DNA from: a virus
Strand: one strand, 5' to 3'
Virus record (IMG/VR): IMGVR_UViG_3300022602_000033
Length of the DNA: 64,000 bases
Part shown: positions 2,364 through 38,500 of the stretch, one piece after another
How positions within the stretch are numbered: the stretch's first letter is position 1
Layout of the letters: every line of letters starts with the position of its first letter
Made by a program: the position numbers and the translations under genes
Notes under the pieces: model-generated
The model's database searches: none
What the model was told of the DNA's origin: nothing
The model's input: the letters and a program-made list of their open reading frames with translations, nothing else

Positions 2364-3290
2364 TCATAATTTCTTAATGAGATATCTACCCTTAAATGGT
2401 GCAGTGCTGTAATTTGCCATCCAACGGGCAGAGGATACTGCATATCCGTTAACACTGCACCAATCGGTTATCGAAGGTATATCATATGTCTCATGCGTAA
2501 CAAGATCCGTAATCCGATATCTGTTTGATTGTTTGATCCTCTTGTGATATAGCGCCAGGTCATCTAATGGGTTAGTGAGTACGTTGTTTTCATCAAATGA
2601 TGATATAGCATCGCATGAGATGACACCCTTGCGTTGATTGTCCACAGCAGGAATAACCCTCAGATTTTGAGGTGCTGCTATATCTTCTGGTGGTATATTC
2701 TGGATGAACCCAGACATTATTGATGTAATATGATCAAGGTGGTATTCATTGCCGCGCGGTAATCCTGTTGAGTTAATGTCGTGATAATATTTGATGTAAT
2801 TTATATTGGATAGTTCTCGTACCTTACGTCTGTACTCTTCAAACGGTTTCCTTTCTGTCGGCGAAGTGATTTGTCCATCCTTGATCTTTGTATCCAATTG
2901 CTTTTGGAATCCACAGCGTCGGCATCCAAACCCATCTAGATGGCTCGCAGGAATTTGACTAAAGACACCATGTATTGGACATACGATGTCAACCTTCTTC
3001 CCTGACCTCTCATAACGTACCATCGAATAATCATATAAATCGCCATGGACAGCTTTAGCCTTGGTGATAAATGTCGGAGTGTCATATCGGAACTTCTTGC
3101 TCAGTCTATCATAATGGCAGTGTCGGCAACCAGCTCCCGAGAGATGCGTAGATGGTAGTATGTTGATATTACCATGTGTCTTACATGTTATTACCACCGA
3201 GGTTGTGCTATTGACGTATACCGTATGGTCATAGGTGTAACGTGAGCTATGAACCTCTTTGGCTCGAGTCAGGAATTCTTCTGATGTCAT
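2364..3290 (-). mobile_element. Free-standing HNH homing endonuclease with two DUF723-like Zn-binding repeats
   Basis: Two repeats of F..KAK.VHG..YDY...Y......V.I.C..HG......HL.G.GC..C, followed by an HNH core (YHLDHITS...NLRVIPAVDNQRKG). It is AT-richer than the flanks, antisense to its neighbours, and has TAAATA upstream (3329-3334, - strand). Confidence 0.8.
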
Positions 3291-3362
3291 GCGACGCACT
3301 TGTGTTTACTCCGATGCTATGTTATAGTTATTTATCATATCGAGACATATCGGAGTGGCGAG

Positions 3363-4460
3363 ATGCCAAACATTTATATCGTCGGAATAGAGCCGCTTGA
3401 TACCCGATACACGAAACAGTGGTATCACCACATACCCAAGCTGCTGGATGCAGCCGGTGCTGACGTGGTAATCATCGAAGGGGAGGACGTTCCTGCCACG
3501 CCAACACCGGGTGCGTTCCTGGACTTTGGTGCAACCAACATCTTCAAGAGCAGCCAGCTGATGATCATAGCCCAGCTGTTCCGCGAAGACAAGATCCAAG
3601 ATGGTGACAAATTCCTCTATACAGACGCGTGGAACCCCACGGTGATCCAGCTGCGCTACATGGCTGAATTGCTTGGCAAAAAGATTGAAATACATGGTCT
3701 TTGGCACGCCGGCAGCTATGATCCGCAGGACTTCTTAGGGCGGCTAGTAGGCGATAAACCCTGGGTACGCAATGCTGAATGCAGCATGTTCTACACCTAT
3801 GACACCAACTGGTTTGCCACACGTTTCCACAGCAATCTGTTCCTGAGACAGCTGCTGGGTGTAGAGACACTGTTTGCCGAAGATGAGACCGAAGAGTTCA
3901 TCGTGGGCTGCCCAGACTCTGAGATCAACAGGCTCAAGCTCACGGGTTGGCCCATGGAATATCTACCAGCAGTGTTAGAACCATATCGATCGGTGCCCAA
4001 GCGTGACAAGATCATATTCCCGCATCGTCTGGCACCAGAGAAGCAGCTGGAGATATTCAAGGACTTGGCTGAAGCCATGCCAGAGTATGAATGGTTTGTG
4101 GCACAGGAACAAAAGCTCAGCAAAGATGAATATCACCATCACTTGGCAGAGAGCAAGATCGCGTTCAGCGCCAACCTACAGGAAACACTGGGCATCAGCA
4201 TGTACGAAGCAGCACTGGTTGGAACCTATCCCATGGTTCCAGGCAGGCTCAGCTACACCGAGATGTGGAGCGAATGCTATCCCAGCGAGTGGACCAAGAA
4301 CTGGGACAGCTATCTGGCCAACAAGGACAAACTGATCACTCACATACGCTACCTCATGAACCGCAACAGTCTAGCCAGCCATGCAACCGCAGAAGCTGTG
4401 CAGGTTGGTGCCAAGTTCTTCACAGCAACTCCATTGATCCAAGAGCTGGTTCGTGCTTGA
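3363..4460 (+). CDS. GT-B fold glycosyltransferase (GT4-like)
   Basis: FPHRLAPEKQ and FSANLQETLGISMYEA (E-x7-E) motifs; GGAG SD before ATG 3363. Confidence 0.8.
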   Translation: MPNIYIVGIEPLDTRYTKQWYHHIPKLLDAAGADVVIIEGEDVPATPTPGAFLDFGATNIFKSSQLMIIAQLFREDKIQDGDKFLYTDAWNPTVIQLRYMAELLGKKIEIHGLWHAGSYDPQDFLGRLVGDKPWVRNAECSMFYTYDTNWFATRFHSNLFLRQLLGVETLFAEDETEEFIVGCPDSEINRLKLTGWPMEYLPAVLEPYRSVPKRDKIIFPHRLAPEKQLEIFKDLAEAMPEYEWFVAQEQKLSKDEYHHHLAESKIAFSANLQETLGISMYEAALVGTYPMVPGRLSYTEMWSECYPSEWTKNWDSYLANKDKLITHIRYLMNRNSLASHATAEAVQVGAKFFTATPLIQELVRA

Positions 4461-7336: not shown

Positions 7337-8023
7337 GTGACAGTTAGTGATACGATAAGACAGCGCATCAGAGCAGCAGGTGCCAGCTTCAACGCCAATG
7401 ACAACATCAGCGCCTACATAGAACCAGGTGAGACTGATCAGCTCATAGAAGAGCTCAACGCACGCTTTGATGCCGTGTTGGACAGCTTGATCATCGATCG
7501 TGAGAACGACCCTAACAGTCATGACACAGGCAGGCGCTTGGCCAAGATGTATGTGCGAGAGCTGATGAGCGGGCGTTACACAGCACCGCCCAAGGCCACA
7601 AGCTTCCCCAATGACAGCAACGAACGCTATGAAGGCATGTTGGTTGTGCGCAGCGAGCTCAAGAGCGTGTGCAGCCATCATCATCAACCAGTCACAGGCG
7701 TGGCCTACATTGGCATCATCGCAGCACAGAAGCTGATCGGTCTCAGCAAGTACAGCAGGATAGCACAGTGGTGTGCACGTCGCGGTACGCTGCAGGAAGA
7801 GCTGTGCAACGACATTGCCAAGGAGATCATGCGGGCCACTGACTCAGAGAACGTGGGAGTGTACATCCAAGCTTCCCATGGATGCTGCGAAAATCGGGGC
7901 CTAATGGCACATTCTAGTTTGACACAGACCACTGTGCTGCGCGGTGCGTTCTTTACAGATCAGAGCACCAAGAAAGAATTCTTTGACAACATCAAGCTGC
8001 AACAGGAATTCGCACCAAGATAA
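7337..8023 (+). CDS. folE: GTP cyclohydrolase I
   Basis: SVCSHHHQP, IGLSKYSRIA, TLQEEL and HGCCENRG motifs; GGGAG SD. Confidence 0.95.
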   Translation: MTVSDTIRQRIRAAGASFNANDNISAYIEPGETDQLIEELNARFDAVLDSLIIDRENDPNSHDTGRRLAKMYVRELMSGRYTAPPKATSFPNDSNERYEGMLVVRSELKSVCSHHHQPVTGVAYIGIIAAQKLIGLSKYSRIAQWCARRGTLQEELCNDIAKEIMRATDSENVGVYIQASHGCCENRGLMAHSSLTQTTVLRGAFFTDQSTKKEFFDNIKLQQEFAPR

Positions 8024-8031
8024 GTATGACA

Positions 8032-8096
8032 AGCGGCGCTTTGGGCTTCACTCCCGCTATAGAAATTCTGCAGCCTATGGTATAACAACATAGGAG
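8032..8096 (+). promoter_or_regulatory. Candidate structured cis-regulatory RNA (preQ1-I-like fold) with an SD-sequestering hairpin
   Basis: Stem AGCGG/CCGCT followed by ATAGAAA; loop GGGCT is complementary to downstream AGCCT; hairpin CCTATG/CATAGG covers the AGGAG SD of queD. Confidence 0.4.
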
Positions 8097-8103
8097 CGCG
8101 ACC

Positions 8104-8553
8104 ATGGCAAAACATTATTCAACCAAGCATTACGGACACAACATTGGCCTCAGCGCAGTGTTCAGACAACCCAACGCAGACCACAGTCACTGTCACCTGT
8201 TGCATGGTTACAGTCTGGCATTCACATTTACATTTGGATGTGAAACACTGGACAATAAAAATTGGGTGGTGGATTTTGGCGGTCTCAAACCACTCAAAGC
8301 TTGGCTTGAGGATCACTTTGATCACAAGCTGGCATTAGACAAGGCTGACCCGTATTTGGCCAAGTTCCAGGAACTGGAACAACTTAATCTGGTTGAAATA
8401 CGCATATTTGACGGTGTGGGCGCAGAGAAGTTTGCAGAACATGCCTTCAATTTTGCTGATCAATTAATTCGAGAAAAGACCAACAACCGTTGCTATTGTG
8501 TAAATGTGACATGCGCAGAACATGGAGCAAATTCAGCAACCTATGAAGGATGA
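8104..8553 (+). CDS. queD: 6-carboxy-5,6,7,8-tetrahydropterin synthase
   Basis: HCHLLHGYS (CxxxHG), VVDFGGLK, FDHKL and CAEHGANSATY motifs. Confidence 0.92.
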   Translation: MAKHYSTKHYGHNIGLSAVFRQPNADHSHCHLLHGYSLAFTFTFGCETLDNKNWVVDFGGLKPLKAWLEDHFDHKLALDKADPYLAKFQELEQLNLVEIRIFDGVGAEKFAEHAFNFADQLIREKTNNRCYCVNVTCAEHGANSATYEG

Positions 8554-9810: not shown

Positions 9811-10028
9811 TGCCCTTGATCTACGAAAGCCCAGATAAAGGTGTCACAGTATATGGCCGAGAGCTGGGACACATGGATCGCCATCTGGTCAAAGGCGATC
9901 CCACAGATCCCTATGAACATATCTATCTGTGGCACGACATAGTGCACGCAGCCAAGGACAATCCAGCCTTGCGCGAAGTGCTGGATCAAGCTATAATGAT
10001 CTATAAGCTGAGCAAGGAGCAACCATGA
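9810..10028 (+). CDS. Hypothetical protein
   Basis: Coupled ORF beginning IYESPDKGVTVYGR. Confidence 0.7.
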   Translation: MPLIYESPDKGVTVYGRELGHMDRHLVKGDPTDPYEHIYLWHDIVHAAKDNPALREVLDQAIMIYKLSKEQP

Positions 10029-10936
10029 GCACTGCCAAGAAGTACCGTTACAGCGAGATATTCGGTGGTAACGACGGTCCAACTCCCACCATACAGGGCG
10101 AAGGTTGCTATGGCGGACATCCCACTGTGTGGATACGTTTTTGGGGCTGCAATCTAGTGTGCGGAGGCTTTGGTCAAGTTAATCCTCGCGATCCCAGCAC
10201 ATATCAGTTGGATTATCTGGACTATGATCCCATCGCAGCAAACATCCAATCCATGGACCAGTTACCCGTGTGGAAGACAGGCTGCGACAGCAGCTACAGC
10301 TGGAGCACCAAGTATGGTCATCTAGCACACCAGAGCACTGCTGAAGAGATCTGCGCAGACTTCCGCAGCAGGCTACAGGGTGGTAGCTTCACACATCCTC
10401 GCAGCGGACAGGATGTGCATCTGGCATTCACCGGCGGAGAGCCCATGATGAGCCAGACTGGTATCGTGGACATCATGCACACGCTGCGTGCACAGAATGA
10501 CAGCCCAAAGCACATCACCATAGAAACCAACGGCACACAAGCAGTGCGCAAGAACTTTGATGAGTTCTTTACCAATCAGGGCATGTACAACGGCGAACTG
10601 TTCTGGAGCGTGAGCCCCAAGCTGGGCACGTCAGGCGAAAACTGGGACGATGCGATCAAACCAGCAATCGTGCGAGACTATAGGTTGATCAGCAACGTGG
10701 GACAGCTGAAGTTCGTGCTGGATCGCAATCCCTTGACCTGGGACGAGCTGGAGCGAGCGGTTGATGCTTTCCGTGCTGTGGACGTGAACTGGCCAGTGTG
10801 GATCATGCCAGTGGGCGCTACCAGAGAAGAACAAGAAGACGTGCAGATGTGGGTCACAGAAGAAGCGCTCAAGCGCGGTTACAACGTGGCAGCTCGCATA
10901 CACTGCTGGATCTTCAGCAACGTGATAGGACGATGA
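10025..10936 (+). CDS. queE: 7-carboxy-7-deazaguanine synthase (radical SAM)
   Basis: YSEIF..TIQGEG, IRFWGCNLVC...GCDSSYSW, FTGGEPM, IETNGT, SVSPKL and ARIH motifs. Confidence 0.9.
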   Translation: MSTAKKYRYSEIFGGNDGPTPTIQGEGCYGGHPTVWIRFWGCNLVCGGFGQVNPRDPSTYQLDYLDYDPIAANIQSMDQLPVWKTGCDSSYSWSTKYGHLAHQSTAEEICADFRSRLQGGSFTHPRSGQDVHLAFTGGEPMMSQTGIVDIMHTLRAQNDSPKHITIETNGTQAVRKNFDEFFTNQGMYNGELFWSVSPKLGTSGENWDDAIKPAIVRDYRLISNVGQLKFVLDRNPLTWDELERAVDAFRAVDVNWPVWIMPVGATREEQEDVQMWVTEEALKRGYNVAARIHCWIFSNVIGR

Positions 10937-35547: not shown

Positions 35548-38500
35548 TTATGTCCTGGTTCCCGGGTGGTCTAGCAGGAACTTGGCTAGACTAGTGTTGC
35601 TATACTGTAATCCTTTCGGTGCTGATATCCAATTATACCCGCCTTGGATTGTTTGTTCATTGCCTGCTGATATCACTGTGCTGCCAACTGGATGGCTTAC
35701 TGGACTAGACACCTGCACTTCCAATCTAGGACTTGCTAATCTCACATTGCGCCATCCTACAGCAGGTGGTGCTGTAAAGCTTACATAAGTTCCAGCTGGA
35801 TAACCAACTGGGTTATCAACTATTGCATAGGAACCAACTCCAGCATCTATAGCAGTATCAACTTCCACAACAGTTCCTACATTTACTACTACATTGCCAC
35901 CAGCAGGACGCCCGCCTGTAGCAGTGGGGAACAGAGTGGTTACTCCGTCGCCGTCATAGAATACAGTGTCATATAGAACACTGACATTGCCTATTGGCGT
36001 GTTAAACGAACCTCTGTTCAGCTGTTCGAGCAATCCTCTATTGGGGAATGTATTGGTTGGGACAGCATTGACCATCCAATAATCTATGCGCTCGTCGCCG
36101 ATCCATATCACACCAGGTTGTGTAGCTGTAGGTTTAGAAAGCACTGAGATATCTGCAACTTCTATGCTGTTGCTATACACAGTGACTTCTGACAATGTAA
36201 AAGTTTTGTTAGCATTGCTTATAACAGTGCTGGTTTGATAAGAATCGCTCATAATGGTGCGCCAAGCTATGGTAGGACGTGCTGGTAAACCACTCATGTA
36301 TTGTGCTGTGACTGTATCGCCAGGGTGTATCACAATATTATGAGCAAAAACTATTGCGGGAACCGTAACAGCCTGGGTATCCCATCCATACACATCCCAG
36401 GTATCTGTGTTCCAGCCGCCAAAGTACTCTAATTGATAATCGTACAATAATGTCTGCATTTGTCCATTTATCCACACCATCAACGTGCTGCCGTTATATG
36501 GATAATCTATTAGCACGTAGCTAGTGTCGCTGCTTCCGCTCCACGATTGTGTCCTAAATTTATAGCTCACATCTTGGCTATAGCTGATGAATTTCACCAC
36601 TTGTCCAGTTGACGGGTTAGGATCGAGCGGTGACCATCCATAGTAATTGTTCCACGCGCCTAAACCAAAACCTATCGGAGGATCAATAGGGAATTCAATG
36701 TTATTGTTGATTATCTGATAACCATATCCGTAGTTAGGGTCTACCAGTACCAAAGACACAACTGCTTGCGCAGAAGGTGGGGTGAAGAAGAGGACATTAT
36801 CACCACTAATGGTATAATCTGTCAAATATGTCTGGAGATAATTTCCAGCATATACCAAAAGATAGCCATAGTTAGCGGGTATGTAGCCAGCTAGGAAAGA
36901 ATTTGTAACGCCGTCGCCTAGATAGACATCCATGTTTGGACCACGGAGATACGAACCACCTAGAGATACAGTAGTACTCAGATATGGCGGTAGGGTACTG
37001 AATGGCAGGCTAGTAAGCTGGTAAACAAACACTCCGGTCTGCAGCAGTATCTCTTGATCTTGCACGATGCTGAAATCAGTGTTTTCAAACAATGCAATGC
37101 TCACAGTGCTGTTGGCAGGAGGAGCAGGTGTGATGGTTATTAACCTACCGTCTACCATGATATCACTGTTTGAACTGTTAAGAACTGTGCCGTTTTGGGT
37201 AACAAACAGCAGATTGGCATCGTTATTAGGTACTGCAGCTGATATCACAAAATCAGTGTTGCTGCCATCACCAGTAAAACTATCTTGACTGATCTGACTG
37301 TCATAGATGCTGTTGAATGTAGCACCGATTCCGTTGCCACTGGTGCTAGCTTGTGCCATTGGCTGAGCAGGATGCACACTATAGATGCCAGGACTGGTCA
37401 CTGTGATGGTATCAATGCCCCAATCAACAGCGATGTTAGCTCCGGACCCGTTACCAGATGTTTGGTAACCAAACGTGCCGGGCGTAAAAGTATATTGGCC
37501 AGGTTGCACGAGATTTACAGCTGTAATCGAACCGCTGAGAACTGAGACATTGGTTACTGTCAATTCCACAGCACTTGTATTCGAACTCTGATAATCGTTG
37601 GCTAAGATCAGTGTATCACCGACATTGTAACCAATTCCACCGGCAACTATAGCTACGTTCACAGCCTGTACTGTGACTACCTGCACTCTGGCTGGATCAT
37701 AATCTACGGTTTGACCACCTGCCAGCGTGATGGCATCTCCAGGCTGATAACCAGATCCAATCGTCACTGGTACGATGGTCTTCATCCCTGTGCCAGTACC
37801 ACCAGTTGATATTGTCAATATTTGCAAAGTAGCACCAGTTGGTGCATCTAAAAATACCAATGTATTGGTAGCCCAGTTTATCACATAATCATTGGCAATA
37901 CCATAATTCAAAATCTTACCATCAAGCTGTGCTATTACGCTAAACTGATCCATTGGCTGGATGCCCAGTGGGAAGTGATCGCGGTGGCCGTCTGGCTGAT
38001 AGATGCGCATGTAAATTAAAGGAGCGCCGCCGACTGCTTGCTGATATGTATCAATGCGTACACTGCTGGGTAGGTTAAACTTATAAAGCTCTTCTGGATG
38101 GTCGTTATCAACATACGGTTGCACGAAACGGTTACCGTCGTTTATGATATCTATTGCCCCAGTTGGTGCTGGCACAAACGTTGTACCAACATATAGCACA
38201 AATATGTTTGGTGCTGCATTACTGTTCGGTGCGTCATAGAATACCAAAGTGCTACCGCCCCATGTTGGTTGAAACAGTGCTCCGAATCCAACTCCGGTTG
38301 AATAAGGCGGATAAACCACCCCAACAGGTCCAGATGGGAACAGGTCATATGATCCGGTACTTTCTAAGATAACACTTAGTATTGATCCGTTGTTATCAAC
38401 ATCAGTTACTGTGATCACTGTTGGTGACACAGACGGAGCTATATCCAAATTAAGTGAATCACCTATGGCGTAACCAGATCCTCCTGCTGCTAAAAGCACA

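Follow-up and report, generated by a model that had tools for sequence, protein, structure and literature searches.

The locus considered here raises the question of what occupies the 80 bases between folE and queD in a viral DNA stretch of 64,000 nt (IMG/VR record IMGVR_UViG_3300022602_000033; the whole stretch is called the window below). The neighbouring genes were assigned from their open reading frames and from Pfam/PHROGs matches. The gene folE, encoding GTP cyclohydrolase I, lies at 7337–8023 with its TAA stop codon at 8021–8023, and queD, encoding a protein of the QueD/PTPS (6-pyruvoyl-tetrahydropterin synthase) family, lies at 8104–8553 with its start codon at 8104–8106. Upstream of this start codon, a Shine–Dalgarno (SD) sequence, AGGAG, is read at 8092–8096 (+), and queE is found further downstream at 10025–10936 (Pfam/PHROGs match). 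A previous sequence-only reading placed in the gap a candidate variant of the class I preQ1 (preQ1-I) riboswitch controlling queD translation, with an extended −10 promoter as the alternative. The comparative analysis reported here shows that the gap encodes a small RNA pseudoknot, and there is little doubt in our judgement that it is a conserved pseudoknot switch which is specific to queD and restricted to phages.

The pseudoknot is of the H type, and all of its parts lie on the plus strand. The 5′ strand of P1, AGCGG (8032–8036), pairs with the 3′ strand CCGCU (8054–8058), and the closing pair of this helix, G8036–C8054, is invariant. The P1 loop contains L1 (CGCUUU, 8037–8042), which varies in length and has a non-conserved first base, the P2 5′ strand GGGCU (8043–8047), and L2 (8048–8053), which is conserved in relatives and consists of UCACU followed by the unpaired C8053 abutting P1. 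Downstream of P1 comes L3, AUAGAAAUUCUGC (8059–8071), a 13-nt segment that starts with ATAGAAA and has the family consensus nUAnAAAyUCUGC. It leads into the P2 3′ strand AGCCU (8072–8076), which pairs with 8043–8047 through four Watson–Crick pairs and one G·U pair. This last strand is the switching strand, since it overlaps at 8074–8076 with the 5′ arm of a sequestor hairpin, CCUAUG-N9-CAUAGG (8074–8094, arms 8074–8079 and 8089–8094), in which the opening AGG of the SD is base-paired. The elements named in the sequence-only reading, i.e., P1, the unpaired C, the ATAGAAA tail, P2, the hairpin and the SD, were each recovered at their places in the window.

Taken alone, the window leader does not fold better than chance, and the evidence is comparative. 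The single-sequence fold of the 87-nt window RNA has a minimum free energy (MFE) of −19.8 kcal/mol, versus −21.1 ± 2.9 kcal/mol in shuffles (z = 0.43). The unconstrained MFE structure favours, over P1, a helix between the window's L1 (CGCUU; 8036–8041) and the complementary GAGCGC at 8094–8099, at and just 3′ of the SD. The only relative seen with the window's L1, locus L292, is missing the partner strand, so this helix was treated as unproven; it may be a chance complementarity or a lineage-specific additional sequestor.

Relatives of the locus were picked from IMG/VR by protein alone. A protein-guided scan returned at least 593 loci matching the window QueD, and the motif was located upstream of queD in about 78 of the 80 loci fetched. 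A second QueD subfamily, which is 38–40% identical to the window's, accounts for at least 600 more IMG/VR loci; when these were likewise chosen by protein only, the motif was found in 77 of 80 (46–71 bits), and two of the three loci missing it have no upstream DNA. A scan that ignored the genes and searched only for a pattern of the L2-P1-L3 core gave at least 120 stretches, about 105 of which have a complementary 5′ arm of P1 and count as true copies, while about 13 match by chance. Among the matches listed, all true copies precede queD directly or precede an operon in which one extra gene is followed by queD. This extra gene, present in a few cases, encodes a SAM-methyltransferase-like protein of 236–243 aa, a small cupin or a second PTPS. 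The tie of the element to queD, which the sequence-only reading had proposed from a single locus, therefore holds in both of the protein-selected samples, and 211 distinct copies of the motif were seen in IMG/VR phage contigs.

In a search of the 64 kb with a covariance model built from 139 relatives, the copy in the queD leader scored 50.8 bits (E = 2e-15), and the second-best match reached only 8 bits. Five genomes of 93–100% completeness (320–357 kb) contain one strong match each (54–68 bits), which adjoins a PTPS gene; the next-best match in them scores at most 18.8 bits (L207) and does not have the motif structure. With one copy per genome, a generic phage promoter or repeat was ruled out. 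Searches with megablast and blastn returned no close cultured relatives of the window at the DNA level, the nearest cultured-phage QueD proteins are at most 52–53% identical, and the model did not find the motif in five inspected cultured-phage queD loci, where queD is packed against the upstream gene. A search of 185,579 species genomes gave a single occurrence of the core pattern, located before queD at L201:106–162 (CAZXGO010000106.1), on the basis of which a cellular origin of the motif was rejected. The contig that carries it is 8 kb long and was assigned to a Chitinophagales MAG; it is either a hint of the host or mis-binned phage DNA.

The base pairing of both helices was examined through covariation. 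P1 is 5 bp long in the family, and its variants in relatives include AGCGG/CCGCU, UGCGG/CCGCA, ACCGG/CCGGU, AGAGG/CCUCU, AGUGG/CCACU, AUCGG/CCGAU and AGUCG/CGACU. Among 139 distinct copies, P1 showed 44 cells with two-sided changes, versus 4.2 ± 1.9 after shuffling, and a covariation score of 0.233, versus at most 0.034 for slid registers. The pattern-scan copies in this set had been filtered for perfect P1 (two other copies, L086 and L188, carry one mismatch each), and the P1 count was therefore redone on the protein-selected set. There, pairing in P1 reaches 100%; 13 two-sided changes were counted versus 0.9 in shuffles, and the covariation score is 0.181 versus at most 0.039 in slid registers.

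The P2 helix, which is 4–7 bp long across the family, was analysed in an alignment (A2) whose 5′ strand is anchored at the base before UCA and whose 3′ strand is anchored at the base after L3; neither strand was constrained by the pattern scan. The P2 covariation score is 0.588, versus 0.238 ± 0.018 in shuffles and at most 0.197 in slid registers, and 175 two-sided changes were counted versus 76 ± 6 in shuffles. The shuffle controls overstate independence because the sequences are related, but the slid-register controls keep this relatedness and still agree. The closing pair of P2 occurs as all four Watson–Crick types (UA 32, GC 18, AU 17, CG 11). G·U pairs in P2 outnumber A·C mismatches (67 vs. 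29), which assigns the RNA to the queD strand. Both helices of the earlier reading are thus conserved in queD-upstream regions, with compensatory changes well beyond the controls. A further comparison of L1 length with P2 length, meant as a test of three-dimensional consistency, was dropped because its outcome was a measurement artefact.

The unpaired segments are constrained as well. L2 reads UCAU plus the junction C in 122 of the 139 copies and takes the window form, UCACU plus C, in six, and all 139 have an L3 of 13 nt. In the protein-selected set, six L3 columns of alignment A3 (A35, A38, A40, U42, C43 and C46) are invariant, and the 54 distinct sequences of this set all contain the unpaired junction C and the closing G–C pair (54/54 each). 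Altogether, about 17 unpaired positions across L2 and L3 are nearly invariant. The first base of L1 in these 54 sequences is C in 19, U in 19 and A in 16, and the second is C in 52.

How the pseudoknot is connected to translation is indicated by four types of expression platform, in all of which the 5′ arm of the sequestor is, or overlaps, the P2 3′ strand. The SD is buried by the CCUAUG/CAUAGG platform of clade a, which includes the window, and by the GUCUU/GGAGAC platform of clade d. The AUG is buried instead by the clade b platform, UGCCAUUG/CAAUGGCA, and by the clade c platform, UGUCRUC/GAUGGCA (UGUCRUC...GAGAUGGCA). Of the 150 distinct platforms, 145 have an MFE structure in which four or more of the 7 nt directly following L3 are base-paired to the SD/AUG zone, compared with 46% for shuffled heads, and the mean ΔG is −8.2 versus −4.2 with shuffled heads. 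Compensated sequestor variants were also found, i.e., CCUAUA/UAUAGG, CUCUAUU/AAUAGAG and UGUCAUC/GAUGACA, the last of which has ACA instead of GCA as the second codon. Since P2 and the sequestor are mutually exclusive and a locked knot leaves the ribosome-binding site (RBS) free, this wiring is of the ON type. The mutually exclusive SD hairpin noticed in the window is, accordingly, one instance of an arrangement that recurs in all four types of platform, and it fits an ON switch.

Based on this wiring, the H-type pseudoknot with which the queD leader begins would act in cis as a three-strand translational switch, in which the strand 3′ of L3 would pair either with the aptamer loop (P2) or with the ribosome-binding region (sequestor). 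Locking of the knot, most likely by a small molecule, would leave the SD and the AUG free so that QueD is made; if the knot is not locked, the more stable sequestor would form and translation would be off. That a small molecule gates the switch and turns queD translation on is, in our estimate, somewhat probable. The same competition between aptamer and RBS for one strand is found in ON-type translational riboswitches such as the add adenine riboswitch, and in both the add-type switch and the proposed queD switch a stabilised aptamer frees the SD and the AUG. However, the add aptamer is a three-way junction, whereas the queD motif is a pseudoknot in which the switching strand itself is part of the pseudoknot helix.

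In the window, the P1 hairpin, the sequestor and the P2 duplex were calculated at −5.3, −7.3 and −5.8 kcal/mol, respectively, and across the family the sequestors range from −6 to −13 kcal/mol and are usually more stable than P2 (about −6 kcal/mol). These values fit a fold-then-refold process, in which the switch would be a ligand-free kinetic timer: the knot would form first co-transcriptionally, the RBS would be open briefly, and the stabler sequestor would then close it. Alternatively, the same pseudoknot/sequestor switch could be gated by a protein, either QueD itself or a RegA/gp32-style regulator. Protein-bound pseudoknot operators in phage mRNA are an established precedent, as in T4 gene 32, whose autoregulatory leader resembles the queD leader in being a phage-encoded 5′-leader pseudoknot with translational control (proposed in the case of queD). 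Such a protein-gated or timer switch is equally compatible with all of the structural evidence and would leave the same sequence signature, and we regard it as the main rival, unlikely but with a chance that deserves weight. Against it stand the roughly 17 nearly invariant unpaired positions of L2 and L3 and the fixed length of L3. T4-type operators are bound by protein and belong to one gene or lineage, whereas the queD motif, with its many invariant unpaired bases, is kept across QueD proteins that are only 38–40% identical; that the RNA stays constant while QueD diverges speaks against autoregulation by a protein surface co-evolving with it. Also against this rival, the unpaired C beside the G–C floor resembles a nucleobase pocket (PMC11625349).

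If a small molecule gates the switch, the conserved C next to P1 suggests, by analogy, that the ligand would present a guanine-like face. Given the ON logic, this ligand would be a precursor in the FolE–QueD–QueE pathway, or would signal demand for it, rather than being its end product; ON switches typically follow feed-forward or demand logic. We infer that such a ligand exists and that it stabilises P2; candidates for its identity would be 7,8-dihydroneopterin triphosphate, and CDG or another 7-deazapurine. The five near-complete genomes with the motif (G001–G005, behind L035, L038, L044, L070 and L102) carry folE-queD-queE-type genes. A Pfam search for QueC gave no match in three of the five and weak N-terminal PP-loop matches in two, and the Pfam TGT model had no match in the five, so preQ1 is not an obvious product of these phages.

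The relation to preQ1-I deserves closer comparison, since the sequence-only reading regarded the element as preQ1-I-like. The preQ1-I family (RF00522) forms an H-type knot with a P1 of 5–6 bp, a G–C floor and a cytosine as the specificity base, while an L1 uridine and an L3 adenine read the other edge of the ligand and the adenines abut P2 (PMC10622847, PMC11625349). It is divided into types I–III, e.g., B. subtilis queC, T. tengcongensis and E. coli yhhQ (PMC10622847, PMC11625349). Its SD is located in P2, hence repression, and all described preQ1 classes repress (PMC11625349, PMC10622847). The queD motif shares with preQ1-I the small H-type pseudoknot, the 5-bp P1 with a conserved G–C closing pair, the strictly conserved unpaired C at the L2/P1 junction, the A-rich start of L3, a 7-deazaguanine pathway gene downstream and a translational mode of action, the last as predicted here from sequence.

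These shared features would be explained if the element were a genuine, diverged class I preQ1 riboswitch binding preQ1 or preQ0. Some copies even read CCCUCUAUAAAAAUU, close to the B. subtilis preQ1-I aptamer, which we take to be CCCUCUAUAAAAAAC. Nevertheless, Rfam does not place the motif in this family or any other catalogued one: cmscan of the 64-kb window at the gathering threshold gave no family match, and no preQ1 model matched at E ≤ 10 in either 231 nt of the window or 101 nt of the copy with AGAGG/CCUCU as P1. The only match in the Rfam scans, to CPEB3, was dismissed as a chance match on the wrong strand. The anatomy differs in that the first L1 base is variable (C in the window) where preQ1-I has its conserved ligand-contacting U, and an invariant UCUGC stands between the adenines and P2 where the adenines of preQ1-I directly abut P2. 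The earlier reading took the C of the window as a departure from this U; since the first L1 base varies within the family, this C does not replace a conserved U. Furthermore, L3 is fixed at 13 nt and P2 (4–7 bp) is longer than in preQ1-I, and the SD lies outside P2, 16–30 nt downstream, rather than in or next to the P2 3′ strand. The P2 3′ strand serves as an anti-sequestor with ON wiring, in contrast to the OFF wiring of the repressing preQ1 classes (PMC11625349, PMC10622847). Unlike preQ1-I, the motif was found only in uncultured phages and on one short MAG-binned contig. There is also no clear phage route to preQ0 or preQ1, given the QueC results in the five genomes. Membership in preQ1-I is therefore not upheld, and a diverged preQ1 or preQ0 riboswitch is considered very improbable.

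The other alternative of the sequence-only reading, the extended −10 promoter, calls for an account of the promoter signals around the motif. Upstream of P1, a candidate promoter box, GATAAGTA, is located at 8018–8025 (+), where it overlaps the folE stop codon and would start a transcript about 6 nt before P1. In clade a, 89 of 111 loci have a box of the ATAAATA/ATAAGTA type whose end lies 5–11 nt before P1. A canonical TTGACn-N17-TATAAT promoter ending about 7 nt before P1, from which the transcript would begin with the aptamer, was found in 26 of 34 clade-b loci and 24 of 60 clade-c loci (e.g., L292), compared with only 3 of 111 clade-a loci for an upstream promoter of this kind. The position of these promoter-like boxes, 5–11 nt before P1, suggests that the element sits at the start of the leader.

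Within the leader of the window, a sigma70-like signal spans 8058–8086 (+), with a −35-like TATAGA at 8058–8063, a 17-nt spacer and TGG-TATAAC (TGGTATAAC) at 8078–8086. The corresponding −10 element is conserved in the 112 clade-a platforms, with TG in 110, T1 in 112, A2 in 112 and T6 in 106, while the middle of the hexamer is variable. The most frequent hexamers are TATAAT (69) and TAAAAT (24), and the spacer is 17 nt (79 platforms) or 18 nt (33 platforms). A TGnTA[T/A/C]AAT sequence is present inside the sequestor loop in 96 of 111 clade-a platforms. The −35-like box, (T)TTACA/(T)ATACA, spans the junction of P1 and L3 and lies 17–18 nt upstream. No comparably strong internal −10 element was found in clades b and c. 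In a separate count, 35 TGnTATAA-like sites were found in the window versus 16.2 ± 3.5 in shuffled sequence (e.g., at 36806, 40493, 42068, 42345 and 60927), which suggests that the phage uses extended −10 promoters widely.

These observations could be taken to mean that, in the window's clade, the functional element is the extended −10 sigma70 promoter at 8058–8086, that queD mRNA starts near 8093 with the pseudoknot outside the queD message, and that CCTATG/CATAGG is an operator or incidental. The −10 signature is evidently under selection while the other loop bases vary, a −35-like TTTACA/TATACA box stands at 17–18 nt, and the clades are partitioned, with clade a nearly devoid of the upstream sigma70 promoter and clades b and c having it and no internal one; the surplus of TGnTATAA-like sites in the window points in the same direction. 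However, a promoter accounts neither for the compensated base changes of the two helices, which clade a itself also shows (GGCG/CGCC, GGUG/CACC, GGGC/GUCC), nor for the G·U strand bias, and the same aptamer is present in clades without the internal −10. The window's own copy is also a weaker one, with a TATAAC hexamer that does not have the key final T and a −35 box, TATAGA, that matches in three of six positions. A promoter as the only functional element is thus implausible. The extended −10 alternative stands in part, since a conserved promoter-like element does exist in clade-a relatives, but it cannot explain the covariation.

The RNA switch and the internal promoter probably coexist in the window's clade, as judged from the conservation of both signals, and the chance that the internal one works as a second promoter beside the switch is about even. 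With a strong sigma70-like promoter signal between the aptamer and the SD in clade a, part of the queD mRNA may be without the aptamer. The internal promoter would give a short, unregulated queD transcript, and the long, gated transcript would come from the upstream promoter or from folE read-through. The most far-reaching form of the preferred small-molecule reading, i.e., a new riboswitch class of giant uncultured phages which senses a guanine-faced intermediate of the phage-encoded FolE–QueD–QueE pathway (e.g., dihydroneopterin triphosphate or CDG), turns QueD on and is paired in clade a with an internal promoter, is put forward tentatively, at slightly less than an even chance. If true, the new class would represent feed-forward control of a DNA-hypermodification pathway, and in one clade the short transcript would yield QueD without regulation, while QueD from the long transcript would be under ligand control.

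In the open-access literature, no description of the queD-leader motif was found, and the word "riboswitch" was absent from the phage deazaguanine papers that the search retrieved. Nor was a riboswitch found described there for the pathways by which phage DNA is modified with 7-deazaguanines and thereby protected from restriction. To our knowledge, phage-encoded riboswitches are rare, and the queD-leader motif is probably a new, phage-only riboswitch that activates translation. The clade-wise partition of the promoters, the penetrance of the motif in the second QueD subfamily under protein-only selection and the one-copy-per-genome result are new here. At about 50 nt the motif is short, and it is also abundant: the two QueD subfamilies comprise more than 1,000 IMG/VR queD loci and nearly all of those sampled carry it. 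A preQ1-I-shaped knot wired to activate would show the rewiring, and possibly the ligand retargeting, of a minimal aptamer fold. The identity of the ligand would, in turn, indicate the product into which these phages, having no recognisable QueC, convert CDG.

Several loci depart from the simple arrangement of one motif and one queD. Two complete tandem copies of the motif are present in L020 (2132–2182 and 2929–2979) and in L022 (2137–2188 and 2927–2977); in each locus, one copy precedes a gene of 235–236 aa and the other precedes queD directly downstream. The two copies of L020 are near-identical, suggesting that the regulatory module was recently duplicated as a unit. A gene inserted between motif and queD was seen at L138:4432–5160 as well as at L020:2205–2912 and L022:2210–2917. 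This inserted gene had no Pfam match; its atlas feature scores of 0.97, a TM of 0.5 to Methyltransf_11 folds and a weak PHROG match make it look like a phage-specific class I SAM-dependent methyltransferase. Being under the same switch as queD, this methyltransferase-like gene may act in the same pathway. Finally, some QueD genes (L069, L072 and L077, at about 2745–3447) have an N-terminal extension of about 60 aa, for a total of 208 aa, and in L069 and L072 the motif is located upstream of the extended QueD start.
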